Source: a virus (Duplodnaviria; Heunggongvirae; Uroviricota; Caudoviricetes). Taken from it: 12,956 bases of DNA. The stretch lies in IMG/VR virus record IMGVR_UViG_2531839252_000007; one strand, written 5' to 3'. Made by a program: the position numbers and the translations under genes. The notes beneath the pieces are model-generated. The model searched no databases. It was not told the origin of the DNA and saw only the letters and a list, made by a program, of their open reading frames with translations. Shown here one piece after another: positions 1 to 12,338 of this stretch (position 1 is the first letter of the stretch; every line of letters begins with the position of its first letter).

Positions 1-1260
1 ATGGCAAAGCTGACAGATATCCAAATCAAGTCATGGATTAAGGCAGGAGAGCGCTTCGAGGGGCGCTCTGACGGCAACGGGCTATACCTTCGCTATCGAG
101 CGGGGGATAAAGTGCCTGTATGGCGTTTTCGATATCAGTTCGCTGGGAAATCACGGGTAATGCTTATTGGATCTTATAGCGAAATATCCCTTTCCAAAGC
201 ACGGGAAATAGCCAAGGAATTATCCGCACGTGTAGCCCTAGGCTTCGATGTCGCCGGGGAAAAGAAAGCGCGAAAAGCGGCTGCTATAGAAAAGATGGAG
301 CGGGAGAAAAACGCGCTTCGCGTGTCAGAGCTAGCAACCGAGTATTTCGAACGGCAGATTTTGGGACGCTGGAAACATCCCGATCTTCTGCGCCGGAGAA
401 TCGATAAGGATATCAACCCACATATTGGCAACATGAAGATAGAGGACGTAAAACCCCGTCATATTGATGCGATGCTACAGAGCGTTGTTGATCGTGGCGC
501 TCCAACCGTAGCTAATGACGTTCTGCGCTGGACTAAACGCATATTCGATTATGCTATCAAGCGTCATGCACTGGAATTAAACCCAGCTGGAGCATTTGAT
601 CTGTCAGACGCTGGCGGGCAGGAAAGTAGCCGTATGCGCTGGCTGACCCGTGAAGAACTTATACGTTTTTTCCAAGCTATGCGCACTGCAAAAGGATTCA
701 GCCGCGAGAACGAGCTGACCATGAAGCTAATCCTCTGCCTGTGTTGTCGCAAAATGGAGCTGTGCGGTGCTCAGTGGGATGAATTCGACCTTGATGAAGC
801 AGTGTGGCATCTACCAGCAGAACGCGTTAAAAACGGCGACGCTATTGATATACCACTACCTCCACCTGCGGTTGGTTGGTTGAGAGAGCTTCGCACTATC
901 GCGGGCAGTGGGAGTAAATGGGTTCTCCCCGCGCGGAAGATGCAACACCGCATGATTCCCCACATTCAGGAAAGCACACTCCCCGTGGCGCTGGCAAAAG
1001 TACGCCGCGAAATGCCAGAAGTACCAAACTTCACAATTCACGATTTCAGACGTACCGCCCGCACCCATTTAGCGGCGTTGGGTGTCGATCCCGTAGTCGC
1101 AGAACGTTGCCTGAATCACCGCATTAAAGGCGTTGAGGGTATCTACAACCGCCACCAGTACTTTGAAGAACGACGGGCAGCCCTGGAACTGTGGGCGGGG
1201 CTTCTGGTTTCGCTTGAACGAGGGGAAAACTACAATGTTATTCCTTTATCTAAAATATAA
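1..1260 (+). CDS. int: Tyrosine recombinase / phage integrase, P4-like family
   Basis: 419-aa ORF. The N-terminus (MAKLTDIQIK...GNGLYLRYRAGDK..WRFRYQFAGK) is typical of P4-type integrase N-domains. C-terminal catalytic signatures HDFRRTARTH (H-x-x-R) and GIYNRHQY (catalytic Tyr region) are present. The window begins exactly at the start codon, so promoter and att site lie outside it. Confidence 0.93.
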   Translation: MAKLTDIQIKSWIKAGERFEGRSDGNGLYLRYRAGDKVPVWRFRYQFAGKSRVMLIGSYSEISLSKAREIAKELSARVALGFDVAGEKKARKAAAIEKMEREKNALRVSELATEYFERQILGRWKHPDLLRRRIDKDINPHIGNMKIEDVKPRHIDAMLQSVVDRGAPTVANDVLRWTKRIFDYAIKRHALELNPAGAFDLSDAGGQESSRMRWLTREELIRFFQAMRTAKGFSRENELTMKLILCLCCRKMELCGAQWDEFDLDEAVWHLPAERVKNGDAIDIPLPPPAVGWLRELRTIAGSGSKWVLPARKMQHRMIPHIQESTLPVALAKVRREMPEVPNFTIHDFRRTARTHLAALGVDPVVAERCLNHRIKGVEGIYNRHQYFEERRAALELWAGLLVSLERGENYNVIPLSKI

Positions 1261-1275: not shown

Positions 1276-1380
1276 GTATTCACCCTATTCACCTTTTTAA
1301 TTAACTTCATGATTTTAAATAATAAAAAAGGGTGAATACTTACAGTAAAACTAATCACCTTAGTATTCACCTGTTCACCT
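1276..1380. repeat. Iteron cluster (TATTCACC/TGTTCACC octamers, direct and inverted) with AT-rich tract; putative ori of a P4-like replicon
   Basis: Octamer copies at about 1277-1284, 1286-1293, 1364-1371 and 1372-1379 (+), 1331-1338 (inverted, GGTGAATA), and a degenerate AATCACC at 1353-1359. An AT-rich stretch at 1294-1329 lies between them. The same motif family recurs at 11742-11843. Confidence 0.6.
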
Positions 1381-2670: not shown

Positions 2671-3341
2671 TGGGCGCCATTCACCAGATATATGAGCAGG
2701 AAATGTTCTATAACTGGATAGGCGATGGTAAACGATGTGTAGCATTCCACGAAGCGGGCCATGCAGTAGCCGCATGGCTTATTCGCTTAGATATGCAGGT
2801 TATCGCCATTATGGATGAATCCGGCTACGTTGCTGGCGAACATGTACATGAAGCCCAGTGTTTGGGCGTTGTTAAACACGGCATAATCCACAACCACGAT
2901 CTCAGGCGTTTGCGGGAGAGTAAATCTGGTGTAGTTGGGCACGATGGCAAAGTTATCCCTTTCATACGCTACTACGCGGAAGGTATAAAACGCGATGCAA
3001 CAAAGGCCGCTTTTGTAGCCCTCGCTGGACCAGTAAGCGAAGCCCTTTACGAAAATAACGAAATTTTCAATAAAAAGTATTCACTCCCTCACCGCTATGA
3101 CATGGCTAACGTAAATGACATGCTCGATTTAATATGTGCCACGGATAAGCAAATTAACAGGAAGTTAATGCTTTCTAAACTTGTTGAAAAGACCAAATTC
3201 CTCATGACTCAATACTGGCCGGAAGTAGGAAAAATAGCGCATTTGCTTGAGCGGGATAACATTGTTAATGGGCGCGATGTTAGCTCGCTAATCGGCCTCA
3301 ACGTCATTGACCGGGCAACGCCATTTTTGCTGGCGGAATAA
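2670..3341 (+). CDS. Standalone zinc metalloprotease-like protein with HEXXH motif (FtsH / M41 protease-domain-like)
   Basis: AFHEAGHAVAAW motif at residues 26-37 (HEAGH at nt 2748-2762) resembles the FtsH active-site helix. Downstream LAGPVSEALYEN resembles the FtsH LAEE region. No AAA+ ATPase or transmembrane segment is present. Start is coupled to the upstream stop. Confidence 0.75.
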   Translation: MGAIHQIYEQEMFYNWIGDGKRCVAFHEAGHAVAAWLIRLDMQVIAIMDESGYVAGEHVHEAQCLGVVKHGIIHNHDLRRLRESKSGVVGHDGKVIPFIRYYAEGIKRDATKAAFVALAGPVSEALYENNEIFNKKYSLPHRYDMANVNDMLDLICATDKQINRKLMLSKLVEKTKFLMTQYWPEVGKIAHLLERDNIVNGRDVSSLIGLNVIDRATPFLLAE

Positions 3342-3417: not shown

Positions 3418-4476
3418 ATGATGAATAATTTAATCAATCGCATTGCTTTAACCTTTCTAGCGTTAGTACTCACAGGCTGCACTGCGGGGAAAATCGATCC
3501 CGCAAAAGCGTTAACACAAATGCATATCGTCAAAAGTGATGACTATAAGAAGCGCCCCGGCTGGCCTGCGTTGGTTCGTCTGGGTACTGACGATTGTGAG
3601 ACATACAAAAGTGGCGGCGGTAGCCTCTTTAAGTGGGACGGGCTGACGTGCAACGACAAAAGCATTATCCTGGCGGTTAATAGCAAACCACAGACCATTC
3701 CAGTGTTCTACGCTGCTTACCATGAATACGGGAGCTATGGGGTCGGGGAACTATCCAATTTTGACAATAGCACCCGAACAGGTGAGGAAGCCTCGAAGAT
3801 TCTGGTTAACCTGACCACAGTATTGAACAATCCGGCAAAAGTTGACGCTATCTATGCTGACTATGAAAAGGATCGTTGGAGCATGGGACTTGGTACAGTC
3901 AACGAAAGCGATTTTAAAAAGAGCCTGGCTACTTTTGCTCAGGAACGGGATAAGCTTGCCTCTGAATACCATAAATTACGTGACGCAAACCAAAAGAGAT
4001 ACCTAGCTGAACGGGACGAACGAATCAAACGTGAGAAAGAAGAGGCCATGGCCTCTGAAAAAACGATTGATCTCGTGTTATGGCAGAATCCAACAGTTGA
4101 GCAACAGATGGTTGTTGACGCTCTGCACACTATTAAATTCACAATAAGAAACGATGGCGTGGCATACGCTAACGGTCGCCGATTTATGTCAATTGCCGGG
4201 ATGGAATATCTCAGGAATAGCCTAGCTCTGAGTATGGAGTCATGTTCAGACGCTGGGGCATATGTTGGTGATACGGCATTAAATCGCGCATGTATTCAGG
4301 GCTTGGCGAGGAACATTGTTGAGTGGGGGAAAACCGCCAACGACCGTTCTATTTCAGACAGAGCATGGAACGCAGCCGCAATGGATGGCAGCATTAACTA
4401 CAACCCAATCAAGTATGAAATCCTGTTTTCACATTGGGCAGGAATGGCCCGTGTCTACTCTGCTCGTGGATATTAA
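3418..4476 (+). CDS. Lipoprotein (352 aa) with signal peptide, lipobox and charged coiled-coil-like segment
   Basis: The N-terminus MMNNLINRIALTFLALVLTGC has a hydrophobic core and an L-T-G-C lipobox. An AAGGA Shine-Dalgarno lies upstream. The middle region KLRDANQKRYLAERDERIKREKEEAMASEK is coiled-coil-like. Confidence 0.85.
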   Translation: MMNNLINRIALTFLALVLTGCTAGKIDPAKALTQMHIVKSDDYKKRPGWPALVRLGTDDCETYKSGGGSLFKWDGLTCNDKSIILAVNSKPQTIPVFYAAYHEYGSYGVGELSNFDNSTRTGEEASKILVNLTTVLNNPAKVDAIYADYEKDRWSMGLGTVNESDFKKSLATFAQERDKLASEYHKLRDANQKRYLAERDERIKREKEEAMASEKTIDLVLWQNPTVEQQMVVDALHTIKFTIRNDGVAYANGRRFMSIAGMEYLRNSLALSMESCSDAGAYVGDTALNRACIQGLARNIVEWGKTANDRSISDRAWNAAAMDGSINYNPIKYEILFSHWAGMARVYSARGY

Positions 4477-4526
4477 ACACTGCGCTTCGAACTGATAAAT
4501 TTAAGCTTAATCAGTACATTACTGTT

Positions 4527-4552
4527 AGCCCGCATTTTAGCGGGCTTTCTTT
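4527..4552 (+). terminator. Rho-independent terminator after the lipoprotein gene
   Basis: Stem AGCCCGC(4527-4533), loop ATTTTA, stem GCGGGCT(4540-4546), followed by TTCTTT. Confidence 0.7.
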
Positions 4553-4569
4553 AGTTGAGCTTTGTACAA

Positions 4570-4585
4570 GATGTAAATTTACATC
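4570..4585. repeat. Perfect 16-bp palindrome GATGTAAATTTACATC
   Basis: Self-complementary and AT-rich. It sits between convergent genes, about 35 nt past the stop of the minus-strand peptidase gene. It could be a minus-strand terminator hairpin or a binding site. Confidence 0.5.
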
Positions 4586-4618
4586 CTGATTATCCAGTGC
4601 GCCGTAAAAGCTGGCAAT

Positions 4619-5731
4619 CTATTTAACTAAACGTAAATGTGACGGGCGTATCCCCGATTCCTGGGTACTCGATTTTCCACCATTGATAGCTTCCATAAAG
4701 AAGCTGTTACTGAAAGTAAGTGCACTCGCTTCGTCCGCAGGTAACCTCAACTGCTCGAGAATATCTCCCCTTTTAACGCCTTTGCTGCGTAGGGCTGAAA
4801 ACACTTTATCCAGCACTAATGACTTTTCACGTTCAGCAATCCCTTGAGGCTCACTCGTACGATATCCACGGCGAGCAAGTTCTATCGATAGCTGTCGATA
4901 ATGCCATTCGGTAGATAAACCGACATCAAACGTACGGCGCACCAAAGCCGCCAATGATACCCGCCAGTTCTTTTTTAACGAGATGAGTAGATCAAGCGAT
5001 GGCATTCTTGGCACTAAAGCTAAAATACTACGCTCAGGCATCAAAAAGGCCGATGCGAATCGATCTGCATCCTGCTCAGCTTGGCGGCCGTTGTTAGTTG
5101 AATGTTTATGGAGAACCAAGTGCCCCAGTTCATGAGCTGCATCGAATCGACTACGCTCCGGCGTTTTCATTGTATTCAAAAGCACAAAAGGTTTTTCATC
5201 CATCCAGAAAGAAAAGGCGTCTACTTCAATACAATTTTCCGCGAGAGAGAACACACGGACCCCATTAGCTTCAAGAAGATGGACCATGTTAGAGATGGAT
5301 AATTCACCTATCCCCCAACTTTCTCTAACCACGCGAGCAGCTCGCTCAGGCTCAGAATAACCATCGAAACTACAATCAGGTACATTAGGTTTAGGAAGCT
5401 TAAACTGCCCGTCAATCCAAGCTGATAGCTCTTGCGCGAGCTTTCCGGCTCCGAGTGCTGAGTCCCTTTTCTGTGCCGTCAACTTTGTCATTGCACGGAA
5501 ACTAACGGCTTCTGGCGACAGAGTAGGTACATCCCTGTCGAGGAAGAACTCAATCGGATAGCCCAGAACAGCAGAAATCCGTTCCATGGTATCGCTGGCT
5601 ATGGCATCAAAAATCCCTGCTTTCTCGTAATTCGAAATCGTCTTACTAGTCAATTCTGTAGCTTCAGCTAAAGCTCTTTGTGTCAGGCCTCTCCGTTCTC
5701 TGGCTATACGTAAACGCTCTGAATTAAACAT
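4619..5731 (-). CDS. XRE-family HTH fused to ImmA/IrrE-type (M78, COG2856-like) zinc metallopeptidase, with C-terminal extension of about 130 aa
   Basis: N-terminal HTH LTQRALAEATELTSKTISNYEKAG. HELGH at residues 200-204 (nt 5120-5134, verified by reverse-complement translation). Followed by EQDADRFASAFLMP, the characteristic ImmA/IrrE E-x-x-A-x-x-F-A-x-x-x-L-x-P signature. Starts 9 nt after the upstream gene stop. Confidence 0.9.
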   Translation of the reverse strand: MFNSERLRIARERRGLTQRALAEATELTSKTISNYEKAGIFDAIASDTMERISAVLGYPIEFFLDRDVPTLSPEAVSFRAMTKLTAQKRDSALGAGKLAQELSAWIDGQFKLPKPNVPDCSFDGYSEPERAARVVRESWGIGELSISNMVHLLEANGVRVFSLAENCIEVDAFSFWMDEKPFVLLNTMKTPERSRFDAAHELGHLVLHKHSTNNGRQAEQDADRFASAFLMPERSILALVPRMPSLDLLISLKKNWRVSLAALVRRTFDVGLSTEWHYRQLSIELARRGYRTSEPQGIAEREKSLVLDKVFSALRSKGVKRGDILEQLRLPADEASALTFSNSFFMEAINGGKSSTQESGIRPSHLRLVK

Positions 5732-5740
5732 GGTGCATAT

Positions 5741-6460
5741 TTAGCCTGTTTTTAAAATGTCGAGATCGATATCCGGTGTAAACTGCGGTACATCACCGTT
5801 CTGAACAATAGGGTCAGGTTGATGAGGAGCAATAATTAAACGTGTGGAGAAGGCATTAACTACATTCTTGTTATTGTATGAAATCGGGCGTGAAAGCTCA
5901 GCTCGGATCCCCACGCGCTCATCCCCGTCAATTTCATAAAAATCGTAAAGTAAAAACCATAAGTCCAGTCCGATTTTATTCGGTAGCAGTGGTATAACAT
6001 CACCTTCCGGCATGTCTAAATCCAGCTTAAGCTGGCTATCATCCAGGATAAGCTCACCCTGACCCGGGGTGTTATTATGGATTAACCCCATCAGCTCACA
6101 AGTAAAATCACCTTTCTTCATGCGAGACTCAGGAAATCCATGAACCAAACCTGTCTGATCACACCCCCGGCAGAGGTAAAGGGCAACTTTATCACTTACA
6201 GTCAGTTCAACATTTCGCAGGGACAGACGTTTGTAGCCTTTCGGAGCCAGAATGTCGCGGGCTGCACTCACCCCCTCACCATAGAAATATTGCCCACGTG
6301 AGGTCTTGGGGTGATTCTGAGTCGTCGAATAACGACCAGACAAGCCACGCTCAAGAATACGCCTGAGATCACTTTGGCTCAGATTCAGGGACTGCAGGTA
6401 GGATTCAACATCGTCAGGATCTGCCAAAACAATGGTTTTTGCGAGATTATGAGAGTACAT
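5741..6460 (-). CDS. Hypothetical protein (239 aa), first gene of minus-strand cargo operon
   Basis: ATG at 6458-6460 with an AAGAGG Shine-Dalgarno 8 nt upstream. No recognisable family. Co-oriented with, and 9 nt upstream of, the HTH-peptidase gene. Confidence 0.8.
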   Translation of the reverse strand: MYSHNLAKTIVLADPDDVESYLQSLNLSQSDLRRILERGLSGRYSTTQNHPKTSRGQYFYGEGVSAARDILAPKGYKRLSLRNVELTVSDKVALYLCRGCDQTGLVHGFPESRMKKGDFTCELMGLIHNNTPGQGELILDDSQLKLDLDMPEGDVIPLLPNKIGLDLWFLLYDFYEIDGDERVGIRAELSRPISYNNKNVVNAFSTRLIIAPHQPDPIVQNGDVPQFTPDIDLDILKTG

Positions 6461-6485
6461 CGGAAAAGCCTCTTATATATTTTCT

Positions 6486-6520
6486 ATTTTTTATACCTCA
6501 TTTGAGGTTTAAAAACAAGA
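6486..6520 (-). promoter_or_regulatory. Candidate promoter of the minus-strand operon with palindromic operator in the spacer
   Basis: On the minus strand: -35 TTGTTT (plus 6513-6518), 17-bp spacer, -10 TATAAA (plus 6490-6495). The spacer contains the inverted repeat ACCTCA-tt-TGAGGT (6495-6508). Confidence 0.45.
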
Positions 6521-6666
6521 AAATCACTGTATAAAATCTCAGAGATAATCGACAGATTAGAGAGTATTATCCATATTGAGGCTATCCCGACGGGGAGAAA
6601 AGCGGCTACGCCTTGCCGCCTGCCTCCCCCATTATCTCAAGGCGGTGACGTGTAAGGCGAACGTGC

Positions 6667-7485
6667 ATGAGTGGTTTTGTTTTTCCTTTCGAGTTTCAAC
6701 CAGTGCCAGAGGCATTGGCAATCCTGAACGACATGGATATTGCTCCCTTTGAAATAACCGAAAAACACCTAGAAAGCTGGTGGGCGGAGGGGAAAATTCA
6801 ACTGTGCTTTAACTGGGGTAGATTCTGGAAAGCTGGCTTAGCCGACGAACTGGCAAAAACAGAAGGCTACGCAGAATTAGGGGCGAAAGAAAAGATCACT
6901 GCGCTCAATGCTGTATCCGCTTCCCCCGAGGCTAACATCAGTCTTGTCGTGCCATCTTACAGCGATTTAAGTTTTATCTGGCGCGGGCATAGCGACGATC
7001 CACTCCCCTGTATCGAGGCCAAACCCTACGGGCTTGATCAACCTTTTGTTATCAAACGCGTTCCTCACACCTGCGAGGACTATTGCGATTACGGTACGCA
7101 GCATTGGGAAAAACTTTACCATTCGCTGCACATTTCGAGTATGGTGCTGCCGCGTGCTGAAGCTGAAAAAATTTATTATCTCTGCAACCCTACAGCTATT
7201 CCAGGCATGGACGAAAAGACGGCATCTGCAGTATCTGCGAAAACGGTTAACTATCTGGCCACTGCTTTAAAAGCTTTTATTCACATCCATTACGGGGCTG
7301 ATGTGGCGGACAACCTGCGCAAACATCTTGAGGATCCCACCAGTGATATACGGAAAGACTTTGCGAATAAAGGGATCAAAGCGCCAGGTGGAAAAGCGCT
7401 GGCCAGCCATCTGAAAAATATTCTGATTGAAGTTTTACCCGCGCTCGACAACGTCGATGTGGAGAGTGACGCTGGTAATACATAA
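6667..7485 (+). CDS. Hypothetical protein (272 aa), divergent from the minus-strand operon
   Basis: Coding-like ORF with AAGG about 9 nt upstream of the ATG. Contains a Cys/His-rich patch HTCEDYCDYGTQHWEKLYHSLH. No recognisable family. Confidence 0.7.
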   Translation: MSGFVFPFEFQPVPEALAILNDMDIAPFEITEKHLESWWAEGKIQLCFNWGRFWKAGLADELAKTEGYAELGAKEKITALNAVSASPEANISLVVPSYSDLSFIWRGHSDDPLPCIEAKPYGLDQPFVIKRVPHTCEDYCDYGTQHWEKLYHSLHISSMVLPRAEAEKIYYLCNPTAIPGMDEKTASAVSAKTVNYLATALKAFIHIHYGADVADNLRKHLEDPTSDIRKDFANKGIKAPGGKALASHLKNILIEVLPALDNVDVESDAGNT

Positions 7486-7547
7486 CCCCGGAACATTCCA
7501 TATATTCCGACGCATTAGAATATTCCAGAGCCCATCACCATAACCTT

Positions 7548-7581
7548 GCGATTACCTTCTCACTCAATAGCAGGTAATCGC
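7548..7581 (+). promoter_or_regulatory. Inverted repeat GCGATTACC/GGTAATCGC overlapping the alpA ribosome-binding site
   Basis: 9-bp arms at 7548-7556 and 7573-7581 with a 16-nt spacer. The right arm ends at the base before the alpA ATG. Three TATTCC-like repeats lie upstream at 7494-7526. Confidence 0.4.
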
Positions 7582-7794
7582 ATGAAATCGCAAACTTTCA
7601 CCTTTCCCACCAATGGCAACGCACGAGCCAAACAAGTGGCGCACTATCTTGGAGTGCATATCAGCACCGTATGGCGCTATGCAAAACGTCCTGATTTTCC
7701 AAAACCCCACCAGTTAACCGACGGCGTGACCGTCTTTGACGCCGCAGCTATTCGCCAATGGAACAAGCAAAAAACCGGGGGTGAGAATGCTTAA
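7582..7794 (+). CDS. alpA: AlpA-family (P4 Vis / CP4-57 AlpA-like) small HTH regulator or excisionase
   Basis: 70-aa product MKSQTFTF...VAHYLGVHISTVWRYAKRPDFPKPHQLTDGVTVFDAAAIRQWNKQ matches the AlpA/Xis-type pattern (LGVs.sTvWR...FP.P...W...I..W). An in-frame start also exists at 7546. Confidence 0.85.
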   Translation: MKSQTFTFPTNGNARAKQVAHYLGVHISTVWRYAKRPDFPKPHQLTDGVTVFDAAAIRQWNKQKTGGENA

Positions 7795-9047: not shown

Positions 9048-9268
9048 TGCCACGCAAACATCGCTCATCAAGCAACCTGATCAAATTAATGGAACGCCAG
9101 AAAGGTATAGGGCGCGACGATATCCAGATCGCAGATAATCGCCCTACATTCATGCCGTACGAGCCGAACGGAACCTACGCCACAAACCGCCATACCCGCC
9201 GTATGCTACGCAAGCTCCACGGCATCCAGGCAAAAAGAATGTGTGATCTGAAAGGAGGTCAGAAATGA
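9047..9268 (+). CDS. Small basic hypothetical protein (73 aa)
   Basis: AGGGAGG Shine-Dalgarno upstream. TAATG start/stop overlap with the upstream gene and ATGA overlap with the primase gene. Confidence 0.65.
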   Translation: MPRKHRSSSNLIKLMERQKGIGRDDIQIADNRPTFMPYEPNGTYATNRHTRRMLRKLHGIQAKRMCDLKGGQK

Positions 9269-11679
9269 TTGGATTCGATCACCTGATGGAGCAGGGGCAG
9301 AAACGCACCCCTGCTCGTTTTACTGCAAATAGCTTTTCTGACCTGTGCAACGCTATTCTATCGCATCGTGTGCAAATTTCCATCACCCCAGAAATGACAG
9401 ATGAAGAGCGACGTAAGGAAAAGCAGAAACTGTACTGGTTCTCGGCAACTACCCAGCAGGACGGGCAGCGACGTAAACCCGAAAACATGGCACCGTGTGC
9501 TTTCGGTATGCTGGACATTGACGGCAGCACTCCCGGTGCAATCACAGCACTTGTACAGGTGTTCCGGCGATACTCAATGCTGGTGTACCAGACGGCCAGC
9601 TATACGGCGGATGAACCTCGTCTGCGTATTGTGTGCGAGCTTTCCCGAGCGGTTGAATCTGACTACCGCCGAGCGACAGGCGAATCCATAGAAACTTTGT
9701 TGATGCAGGAGGCTGGATTCTCATTCGCCAGCCTGGCGGATAAGAAAGCACGCTGGGAGAACGGCAGCGATTATGTTGTCTTTGACCGCAATGTATACGG
9801 CGCTCAAAGCTATTGCTACTGTCCACACTCTGGAGCGAAAGCCCAGAATTACGCGGGCGCGGTAATCGACGTAGGGGCGTTACCGGAACCCGCCCAGCTA
9901 CCAGCGAAGGCGGCCAAAAGCAAGGCAAAGAAACAGCGCCAGCGTGACGCCGCGGCGGTAATAGATGCTGATTTTGACGATCTGAGCGCCGGACCGGATA
10001 ACTTCCTTATCGCCGACCTGCGCAGCGCACTCTGGTTTCCCTCCATGCTGCAAAAGGCATGGGACAATGGGGCGTGGATTGAGCAGGGCTACCGCCTTGC
10101 ATCTCTCAAAGGCACCGATTTTGAGGACGACGCGCGGCAGCTGTGGGTCGAGTGGTCATTGACCGCGGCGGATGGCTGGCCTGATGAAGAACTTGATGAA
10201 GTCGCAGCACAACGCTGGGATGGTCTCGCCCCTGACAAAACCAGCTATAAAGCTATTTTTACTGATGCTCAGGCGCAGGGGTGGAATAATCCGAGCACAT
10301 GGCGAGCAAAGGCCGCGTACATTGAGAAAATGGCCCCCAGCACACGCGGTGAACTGCTAGCGCAATATTACGGCAACGTATGCCTGAAAGCTGATGGCAA
10401 CATGGTTTATCACTATACCGGGCAGGGGTGGGAGCACATCGCCGATGCCGAGTTGCGCCGCCAGCTTTCGCATATTTTCAAAGATAACGGGGTCCCCTTT
10501 ACACCGTACGAGGTTAAAAGCGCGATTGAGGCTATGGGAATGCTTCTGCCTTTAATGGGAGAAACTCCTCGTAACCTGATTGGCTTTGCCAACGGCGTTT
10601 ATGATCTCGAGGCGCAGCGATTCCGCCCCCACTGCCCAGACGATTGGCTGACCAGCCATAACGGCGTTGAATACACGCAACCGGTTAAAGGCGAAACCCT
10701 GAAAAACAATGCCCCAAACTTCTGGCGCTGGCTGCATCATTCCGCAGGGGGCGACTTCGACAAAATGGAGAGAATCAAAGCCGCTCTGTATATGGTGCTG
10801 GCAAACCGCTACGACTGGCAACTGTTCATCGAGGTTACCGGTGCTGGTGGCAGTGGTAAAAGCGTGTTCACGGGTATTGCACGTATGCTGACGGGCGAAC
10901 TACACGCCACCAGCGGCACAATGGAGGACATGGACACCGCGCGCGAACGCGCATCTTTTGTCGGCAAAAGCCTGATCACCCTACCCGACCAAGCAACATA
11001 TACGGGTTCCGGGCCGGGTATCAAGGCTATAACGGGCGGCGACGTGGTAAGGATCGACCCAAAGCACGAAAAGCCATTCCATACGGTTATTCGCGCCGTT
11101 GTCATCGCAACAAACAACGAACCTATGCGTTTCACCGAACGACAAGGCGGGATATCGCGGCGCCGGGTTATTTTCCCGTTTAACCATGAAGTGCCGGAGG
11201 CGGAACGTGATCCCCATCTGCTCGATAAAATTAAAGCCGAACTGCCGGTAATCGTCCGTGGTCTGCTGATTGACTTCGAACAGCCAGGCAAAGCCAAATC
11301 GCTACTTATCGCGCAGCGTGATTCAGCGGAAGCGCTGCAGGTGAAGAACGATAACGACCCGATGTATGGCTTTTGCTCTTACCTGCTAGGTTTGCCGAAT
11401 CCCGAGGGCATGTACATGGGCGATGGGCGCATGGCGCGAGAGCCACGCATCTACCTCTATCATGCTTATCTGGCCTATCTGGAAGCCTACGGTTATCAGA
11501 GAACCCCCACCCTGCCAAAGTTCAGCGGAGATTTACGGGACACGCTCAAAGCCTTTGGTATTACTCTGGACAGTAAAAAGAGTAAAAAGGGCAAAAGATA
11601 TAACGTCAATTTGTCTGACAGGGCACAAGAATGGCTGGGAGAAGACGAACTCTCAGCTGTGCCCGACACATTGCAGTAA
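9265..11679 (+). CDS. Replication primase/helicase (N-terminal AEP/prim-pol-like domain, P4-family/D5-like SF3 helicase domain)
   Basis: 804 aa with an AAAGGAGG Shine-Dalgarno. Walker A VTGAGGSGKS at residues 526-533 (nt 10840-10863) sits in the middle, as in P4 alpha and D5-type helicases. N-terminal MLDIDG (nt 9508-9525) is an acidic D-x-D motif consistent with an AEP-type primase. Confidence 0.85.
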   Translation: MIGFDHLMEQGQKRTPARFTANSFSDLCNAILSHRVQISITPEMTDEERRKEKQKLYWFSATTQQDGQRRKPENMAPCAFGMLDIDGSTPGAITALVQVFRRYSMLVYQTASYTADEPRLRIVCELSRAVESDYRRATGESIETLLMQEAGFSFASLADKKARWENGSDYVVFDRNVYGAQSYCYCPHSGAKAQNYAGAVIDVGALPEPAQLPAKAAKSKAKKQRQRDAAAVIDADFDDLSAGPDNFLIADLRSALWFPSMLQKAWDNGAWIEQGYRLASLKGTDFEDDARQLWVEWSLTAADGWPDEELDEVAAQRWDGLAPDKTSYKAIFTDAQAQGWNNPSTWRAKAAYIEKMAPSTRGELLAQYYGNVCLKADGNMVYHYTGQGWEHIADAELRRQLSHIFKDNGVPFTPYEVKSAIEAMGMLLPLMGETPRNLIGFANGVYDLEAQRFRPHCPDDWLTSHNGVEYTQPVKGETLKNNAPNFWRWLHHSAGGDFDKMERIKAALYMVLANRYDWQLFIEVTGAGGSGKSVFTGIARMLTGELHATSGTMEDMDTARERASFVGKSLITLPDQATYTGSGPGIKAITGGDVVRIDPKHEKPFHTVIRAVVIATNNEPMRFTERQGGISRRRVIFPFNHEVPEAERDPHLLDKIKAELPVIVRGLLIDFEQPGKAKSLLIAQRDSAEALQVKNDNDPMYGFCSYLLGLPNPEGMYMGDGRMAREPRIYLYHAYLAYLEAYGYQRTPTLPKFSGDLRDTLKAFGITLDSKKSKKGKRYNVNLSDRAQEWLGEDELSAVPDTLQ

Positions 11680-11700: not shown

Positions 11701-11722
11701 CCCCGTAAATCGGGGCTTTTGT
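11701..11722 (+). terminator. Rho-independent terminator after the primase/helicase gene
   Basis: CCCCG stem, TAAAT loop, CGGGG stem, then CTTTTGT, starting 22 nt after the stop. Confidence 0.7.
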
Positions 11723-11741
11723 CTATTTATTAGTCTGAAAG

Positions 11742-11852
11742 GGTGAACAGGTGCGCATACCTTAACAAAGCTGTTCACTCTAATAATTTTCTTTAATATC
11801 AGTACACTACCCGCAATAAGTGAACAGATGGACGGGGTGAACACTTCACACC
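11742..11852. repeat. Second iteron cluster (TGTTCACC family); putative crr-like cis replication region
   Basis: GGTGAACA at 11742-11749 and 11836-11843 (perfect reverse complements of TGTTCACC). TGTTCACT at 11772-11779 and AGTGAACA at 11819-11826 (one mismatch each). Degenerate CTTCACACC at 11844-11852. Confidence 0.6.
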
Positions 11853-12338
11853 TATAGCGCGAAATATTTTAATATTTGCAGTTGAATTGCAATCCTTGAA
11901 AACAGAAACGCGTAGCAAAACGTAGAGTGCTGAAAAAATTTTGTTGGGGAGCAGTTCAAACTGCATGAGCAATTTTCAAGCACTCCTCTTTGTCTTGTAC
12001 CCAAGACTGTACCCAATAGAAAAAATAGAAAATAAAAACTCAGCAATAGCAGCGATTGGTGCCACTACTCAACATTCAGATTCATAAGCGACATATCTCC
12101 GTAGGCCGTTGTTAATTACAGCGGCGCTACGCATATAGTTTCGTCCTCATATTTATTTACTCCATACTTTTTCTAATGCATTTTACTTATCACAAAATCA
12201 GAAAAATGCATTCTTACTACAGAAAATAGCAATTTCACATAACTACAAATTATCAATCTATTCTCTCCTTAAAAAATCTCAATCGTGACAATGCGCACAA
12301 ATCGCTACCCTTCCAGACAGATTTTTAGGGAGAGAACC

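Follow-up and report, generated by a model that had tools for sequence, protein, structure and literature searches.

What are the short repeats that follow the primase/helicase gene at one end of a small chromosomal island, and do they serve replication or something else? The analyzed stretch of 12,956 nucleotides (hereafter, the window) represents an integrative island of about 12 kb. The explanation that we favor, with moderate confidence and on comparative grounds, is that this right cluster consists of iterons for the winged-helix domain of the island's own P4-alpha-like primase/helicase, and would constitute the crr-like half of a two-part P4-type origin.

Four octamers within positions 11742-11852 match TGTTCACY exactly, and two of them carry a C-to-T change at position 8 (Table 1). 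The cluster starts 63 bp past the stop codon of the replication gene. Several claims of the initial annotation can be checked here. It placed the octamers straight after the replication-gene terminator, which agrees with the hairpin and T run that precede the first site; the hairpin is kept in a relative (L088) whose replication protein is 66% identical. It described them as mostly inverted, and three of the four strict sites indeed lie on the minus strand. Its count of four to five is correct for the four strict sites, but the fifth is only the degenerate CGTCCATC, standing at a 9-bp offset in the place that the second direct iteron takes in other modules. Finally, it called for a test of enrichment. 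The pattern TRTTCACY has 11 matches in the window, compared with 1.25 +/- 1.10 expected from 200 dinucleotide shuffles (maximum 5), and nine of the 11 fall inside two clusters of about 100 bp. In 400 first-order Markov simulations, 110-bp segments held at most two hits, versus five observed in the left cluster and four in the right one. The left cluster, which had been cited at 1276-1380, is real as well, with its TRTTCACY sites starting at 1277, 1286, 1331, 1364, and 1372. DnaA-box, IHF, and GATC motifs are absent from both clusters, no direct repeat of the right module was found nearby, and full-text searching of the literature for the octamer gave hits in unrelated primer sequences only.

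Table 1. Positions of the repeat clusters and associated features in the window.
Feature	Coordinates	Strand	Basis or remark
Tyrosine integrase	1-1260	+	Pfam Arm-DNA-bind_3, Phage_int_M, Phage_integrase
Partner module (left cluster): TATTCACC at 1277(+), 1286(+), 1331(-), 1364(+); TGTTCACC at 1372(+); TAATCACC at 1350(+), 7/8 positions	1277-1379	+	Motif match
Left spacer, 89% AT, least stable 35-mer in the whole window; candidate DNA-unwinding site	1294-1330		AT content and stability ranking
Replication protein, 804 aa, primase/helicase	9265-11679	+	Pfam D5_N, DUF5906, Pox_D5; PHROG DNA primase families
Winged-helix origin-binding domain, aa 696-791, presumed octamer reader	11350-11637	+	phmmer vs PDB 1KA8
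Intrinsic-terminator-like hairpin CCCCG-TAAAT-CGGGG (11701-11715) and T run	11701-11725	+	Ends replication gene
Iteron TGTTCACC	11742-11749	-	Exact TGTTCACY; identical in L088
Iteron TGTTCACT, sole site in opposite orientation	11772-11779	+	Exact TGTTCACY; L088 has TAGTCACC there
Right spacer between iteron sets, moderately AT-rich (72% AT)	11780-11818		AT content
Iteron TGTTCACT	11819-11826	-	Exact TGTTCACY
Degenerate iteron-like octamer CGTCCATC	11827-11834	-	5/8 positions; weak
Iteron TGTTCACC	11836-11843	-	Exact TGTTCACY; identical in L088
Octamer CTTCACAC	11844-11851		Weaker match than CGTCCATC
att arm region, kept along with the integrase in the Citrobacter element; outside the iteron cassette	11896-11994		Comparison with L006
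19-bp att core TTGTACCCAAGACTGTACC, attR copy, putative right element boundary	11995-12013	+	Direct repeat

The presumed reader of the octamers is the product of the intact replication ORF. Residues 314-791 of this protein, covering the helicase and origin-binding domains, are 43% identical to P4 alpha, and its residues 696-791 match the structure of the P4 alpha C-terminal domain (PDB 1KA8; phmmer, E = 5.8e-16). In P4 alpha, the origin-binding domain is a winged helix that follows the SF3 helicase (PMC2777425). The first ~313 residues show no similarity to the P4 alpha primase domain. Judged from its sequence, the replication protein of the window is a chimera of a different primase domain with a P4-alpha-type SF3 helicase and C-terminal origin-binding domain. 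Its N-terminal ~350 residues (9265-10330, plus strand) are primase-type without a Pfam match, and they share 56-58% identity with the replication-protein N-termini of two related elements, L006 and L088. The L006 protein has a weak PriCT-2 match followed by a DUF927 helicase. Since the primase-type N-terminus is conserved and the remainder is either P4-alpha-type or DUF927, one domain is joined to two different helicase/DNA-binding halves.

P4 provides the natural comparison. In its record (NC_001609), the octamers TGTTCACC, TATTCACC, TGTTCACA, and TCTTCACC are annotated as "ori type 1 repeat" in both crr and ori, with ten copies in crr (4291-4590), described there as "cis required region for replication", while ori (9310-9413) has six. 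The C-terminal domain of P4 alpha reportedly binds type 1 iterons in both regions, and crr is said to be required in cis. In P4, what lies downstream of alpha serves as crr and is not the origin. The P4 gene order is alpha (4636-6969), terminator, crr, attP (4078-4097), int. Once the window is circularised, its order is replication gene (stop codon at 11679), terminator hairpin (11701-11715), right cluster (11742-11843), att arm and core (11995-12013), int. Because this order matches that of P4, the right cluster corresponds to crr in position.

The likeness is not limited to position. The right cluster and P4 crr share the octamer family, with type 1 iterons of the TGTTCACC family in both orientations, the orientation of the module, a spacer AT fraction of about 0.7, a partner cluster with the same iterons elsewhere on the replicon, and a cognate protein with a homologous winged-helix domain. 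With a slightly degenerate pattern, the order of strands is -+-- in the right cluster and -++-- in P4 crr, which starts at +51 from the replication-gene stop; upstream of the replication gene, the left cluster reads ++-++ and P4 ori1 reads ++-++++. Thus, the analogy to P4 crr and alpha drawn in the initial annotation is upheld by the octamer itself, the homologous binding domain, the post-terminator position, the orientation, the second cluster, and the joint change of both clusters in relatives described below. P4 crr differs in consisting of two 120-bp direct repeats of five iterons each, whereas the right cluster is a single module of about 100 bp with four strict sites. The partner cluster of the window lies after int, ~1.5 kb away across att, whereas that of P4 lies 4.7 kb off, upstream of the alpha operon; the N-terminal primase domains of the two proteins are unrelated. 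Comparison of P4 with the window by blastn revealed no similarity in crr, ori, or cos, and only the octamers and their spacing are common. Further homologs of P4 genes in the window are int (27% identity), a weakly similar Vis/AlpA-like protein, and an Icd/cI-region protein (44%); no homologs of cnr, epsilon, sid, delta, or psu were found there, and the island has no capsid-redirecting genes.

The spacing follows one layout: two direct iterons 9-10 bp apart, one inverted iteron ~43-47 bp further on across an AT-rich spacer, and at least one direct iteron ~30 bp beyond. This layout is common to both clusters of the window, to P4 crrA, crrB, and ori1, and to both halves of the origin of the cfPICI vB_KppS-Ant. 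The internal layout of the left cluster is that of the right cluster read in reverse. The two modules differ in their spacers, with 72% AT in the right cluster and 89% in the left one, compared with 69% in P4 crrA, 71% in crrB, and 83% in ori1. P4 ori1 is similar to the right cluster in iterons and module layout, but in its 83% AT spacer and six perfect iterons it is the left cluster that resembles it. In all three variants of the element, the int-side spacer is the least stable 35-mer of the locus or among the bottom three, whereas the spacer 3' of the replication gene ranks from 42nd to 158th; the asymmetry is seen likewise in L089 and L006. Because its spacer is much more AT-rich, the left module is the likelier melting or helicase-loading (ori-like) site. 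The right module is read as an auxiliary site required in cis, because its position and orientation match those of P4 crr. This indirect argument from AT content favors melting at the left module with the right one as its auxiliary crr-like partner.

Relatives of the island provide the strongest evidence that the clusters belong with the replication protein. Within E. coli, the island is carried by 17 of 5,426 genomes; since all of these copies are at least 99% identical, variation within the species is of no use. A scan of genome contigs with the full replication protein yielded, among the matches listed, one locus (L006, from Citrobacter amalonaticus), and a metagenome scan added only near-duplicates, L090 of the window and L091 of L006. 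The integrase of L006 is 94% identical to that of the window, and the att core and chromosomal site are the same; L091 is of the same type. The L006 replication protein shares 58% identity over its first ~354 residues, beyond which it has an unrelated DUF927-type C-terminus. Here, repeats of GAAACCG take the place of both clusters: five copies (2954-3053) directly follow int, and another four (12860-12958) directly follow the replication gene. The DNA on either side has been conserved; homology starts again at window position 1402 (left) and window position 11896 (right), and the 140-bp cassette after int is precisely replaced along with the replication protein. This double swap is good evidence, at the level of sequence, that both patches are targets of the replication protein.

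A further comparison is offered by an IMG/VR contig (loci L088 and L089) that shares the att core and encodes the full-length replication protein at 66% identity. Its right cluster keeps the layout and both TGTTCACC sites unchanged, and the remaining sites are variant (TAGTCACC and GTAATCAC). On the left, TATTCAYM, TATTCACC, a spacer made up almost wholly of AT, and GGTGAATA are retained, and TAGTCACC and five tandem TAGTCATCAC units come in addition; the variant TAGTCAC is present in both clusters of this element. When the window is compared with it, iteron columns are 84% identical on the right versus 49% for other intergenic columns (p = 1.6e-4), and 75% versus 39% on the left (p = 2.5e-5), rough values because each alignment has only two sequences.

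Iteron clusters after alpha-type replication genes are well known, as is the ori/crr pair of P4. A survey of ~78-80 alpha-type loci in IMG/VR detected an iteron array 20-270 bp past the stop codon in nearly all of them. The iteron sequence is clade-specific (GGTATAC, GTGTTCAT, GTAGATA, AGACGTA, or TGTRCACC), and most arrays are single and ~240 bp long, with one forward and one reverse module. A few loci (L019-L025) have one module only within 6-7 kb on either side; therefore, one module may be enough. Identity of the C-terminal domain does not separate the iteron types among 80 IMG/VR loci: identities amount to 35-49% throughout, and loci with TGTTCACC are dispersed among the others. What looked like a second module in L013, as well as other clusters obtained with a looser pattern, was rejected as AT-rich noise.

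In Gram-negative PICIs, the origin lies immediately 3' of pri-rep, with iterons flanking AT-rich DNA, and EcCICFT073's pri-rep-ori segment drives plasmid replication (Fillol-Salom et al., 2018, PMC6092414). In vB_KppS-Ant (LR881103, 11721-11949), all 11 iterons, with an octamer identical to that of the window, lie directly after the primase gene and none elsewhere. Both origins are like the right cluster in that their iterons lie on either side of AT-rich DNA and come directly 3' of a gene for an alpha-type primase/helicase; in the window, the iteron sets 11742/11772 and 11819/11836 surround a 72-77% AT segment. However, each PICI or cfPICI origin is one contiguous array of ~240 bp in which a forward module is paired with a reverse one, and packaging or capsid genes come next; the iterons of the PICI-like IMG/VR loci are contiguous as well. 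In the window, the modules are parted by att and int, the second cluster being 10.4 kb away, and only att follows the replication gene. A system from Gram-positive hosts, on which Ubeda et al. (2007) reported, is alike in general layout and logic, with unrelated initiator and iteron sequences. The variant features of the window are the single module in the crr position, the partner module after int, and the chimeric replication protein.

The geometry of the island is relevant here. The initial annotation took the right cluster to mark the distal end of the element and the two clusters to bracket it, and both statements are true in part. The right cluster does lie on the replication-gene side, but the att arm and core are farther out; the left cluster is on the far side of the integrase gene, not at the left end of the element. 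Everything else lies between the two clusters, but att and int are outside the bracket. The same annotation expected the clusters to come close together on the circularised form, which is consistent with the geometry: separated by 10.4 kb in the integrated island, the two inverted modules would have att and int between them on the predicted circle of ~12.07 kb, at a distance of ~1.5 kb.

From the features computed directly (the motif, its enrichment, the binding-domain homology, synteny with P4, and co-variation and conservation) we infer binding, looping, a melting module, and excision, which could be combined in the following scenario. Int-mediated excision would produce the circle and bring the modules into proximity. 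The replication protein bound to both modules would then bridge them, the AT-rich spacer would open, and the protein would assemble as an SF3 helicase and prime DNA synthesis for the host polymerase. A bolder version of this scenario, which we consider improbable, is that the origin is physically split across att. The half-origins would be far apart when the island is integrated, and excision would license efficient firing as a check against replication in place. Neither half could be dispensed with in that version, given the joint change of both patches in the Citrobacter element.

A rival explanation takes the right cluster for the primary or sole origin, as in PICIs and SaPIs, whose origins come right 3' of pri-rep as iteron sets around AT-rich DNA, and regards the cluster after int as accessory, for instance for copy control. 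Since the region just after the replication gene is the origin in PICI-type relatives, the right cluster could be the origin too. The plasmid replication driven by the EcCICFT073 segment, the confinement of all vB_KppS-Ant iterons to this place, the arrays in the same position at nearly all IMG/VR alpha-type loci, and the two iteron sets around an AT-rich segment all suit this explanation. Nevertheless, we regard it as rather unlikely. The usual arrays contain two modules, whereas the right cluster has one, and in each of the three element variants the AT content of its spacer is far below that of the left spacer. The post-int cassette is argued to be needed, because it was precisely replaced along with the L006 replication protein. 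Moreover, P4, the closest characterised user of the octamer, is known for having crr and not the origin downstream of alpha. Alternatively, the right cluster could bind the replication protein for regulation, namely handcuffing copy control, titration of the protein, or control of transcription into att and int. Iteron handcuffing is established for iteron plasmids, the modules would be inverted and flank att and int on the circle, and some other control may exist, since the window has no homolog of the P4 copy-number regulator Cnr. We nonetheless give this alternative a low probability: across the alpha family, origin and crr modules show just this position and layout, and positive evidence for regulation is lacking.

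The remaining explanations dispense with a role in replication. The C-to-T changes in half of the octamers, the degeneration of one expected site, the lack of capsid-redirecting genes, and the rarity and uniformity of the island in E. coli could all be signs of a decaying relic, or of a chance cluster in a cryptic island. This is very improbable given an enrichment far beyond chance, the selective conservation of iteron columns at 66% protein identity, the joint swap of both clusters in L006, and the intact replication ORF. Even less credible is the proposal that the octamers are attP arm-type sites for the integrase or an excisionase. Their distance to the att core, 150-250 bp, is indeed one expected of arm sites, and P4 has attP arm repeats between crr and int. 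However, the octamers do not vary with the integrase: L006 has an integrase with 94% identity and conserves the segment 11896-12013, yet the octamers are replaced there and follow the C-terminus of the replication protein, and for this reason we rule integrase arm sites out for practical purposes. Besides, the same octamers are present after primase genes in elements with unrelated integrases.

If the two clusters are indeed a crr-like site and its ori-like partner, the ori/crr logic of P4 extends to a P4-related chromosomal island that has no capsid-hijacking genes and uses a different primase domain. Among the by-products of the analysis, the concerted double swap in the Citrobacter element is of greatest interest. 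It amounts to a natural swap experiment, in which the DNA-binding half of the protein was exchanged together with two patches of 100-200 bp located 10 kb apart, and it gives a simple sequence rule for locating origins in such islands. The practical value is modest, namely the minimal cis elements for replicating or engineering islands, here one with an RmrT/RmrA anti-phage system.

This system is encoded by two cargo genes (4619-6460, minus strand) that match PADLOC RmrA (370 aa, HTH and M78 peptidase, E = 1e-149) and RmrT (239 aa, E = 1e-52); by these matches, the island carries a RosmerTA-type anti-phage system. The cargo region varies between otherwise near-identical copies of the island (L002 and L090). 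An int-alpA RNA motif (Rfam RF02996; 46.5 bits, gathering score 35.8) is located at 6575-6642 on the plus strand, upstream of the ORF 6667-7485 and of the AlpA/Vis-like gene 7546-7794, in a segment conserved in L006 and L088. Just past the left iteron cassette, a non-coding stretch (1402-1620), conserved in L006, contains a perfect palindrome CATCGTCCAGATCTGGACGATG (~1455-1476), missing from L089, and a strong terminator-like hairpin AAAAAGCCCGCGCTGGAGACGCACGGGCTTTT (~1570-1603). This stretch may represent the terminator of int or else a small RNA.

The 19-bp direct repeat TTGTACCCAAGACTGTACC flanks the element at five loci (L002, L004, L006, L090, and L091), and in complete E. coli genomes the island is situated between yicC and either dinD or yicG, with no tRNA involved at this site. 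The reconstructed empty attB is absent from all 5,426 E. coli genomes, as is the att core from K-12, and because there is no empty attachment site among these genomes, the boundaries of the island are those given by the direct repeat alone. Outside the window, the ~108-bp spacer between yicC and attL (L002, 3165-3272) is present only in island-carrying strains and is conserved in Citrobacter. It contains the 17-nt sequence TCGCATGAAATTGCAAA, which recurs with one mismatch at window positions 7578-7594, at the start of the AlpA-like gene. The recurrence of this sequence and the confinement of the spacer to carriers imply that the true left boundary may extend to the left of the 19-bp repeat. 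An 18-nt AT-rich inverted match (94% complementary) connects positions 6478-6495, in the divergent promoter region of rmrT and the ORF starting at 6667, with positions 12017-12034, just outside the attR core; it may be due to chance in AT-rich sequence.

The yicC-yicG interval is a variable hotspot (window positions 12014-12284; L003, L004, and L005). In K-12 it contains dinD only, and the intergenic sequence is different. In E2348/69, the island is followed by dinD, and the strain of the window has the island without dinD. In strain 2014C-3338, the same interval is occupied by a different island with PerC-family and Doc-toxin genes.
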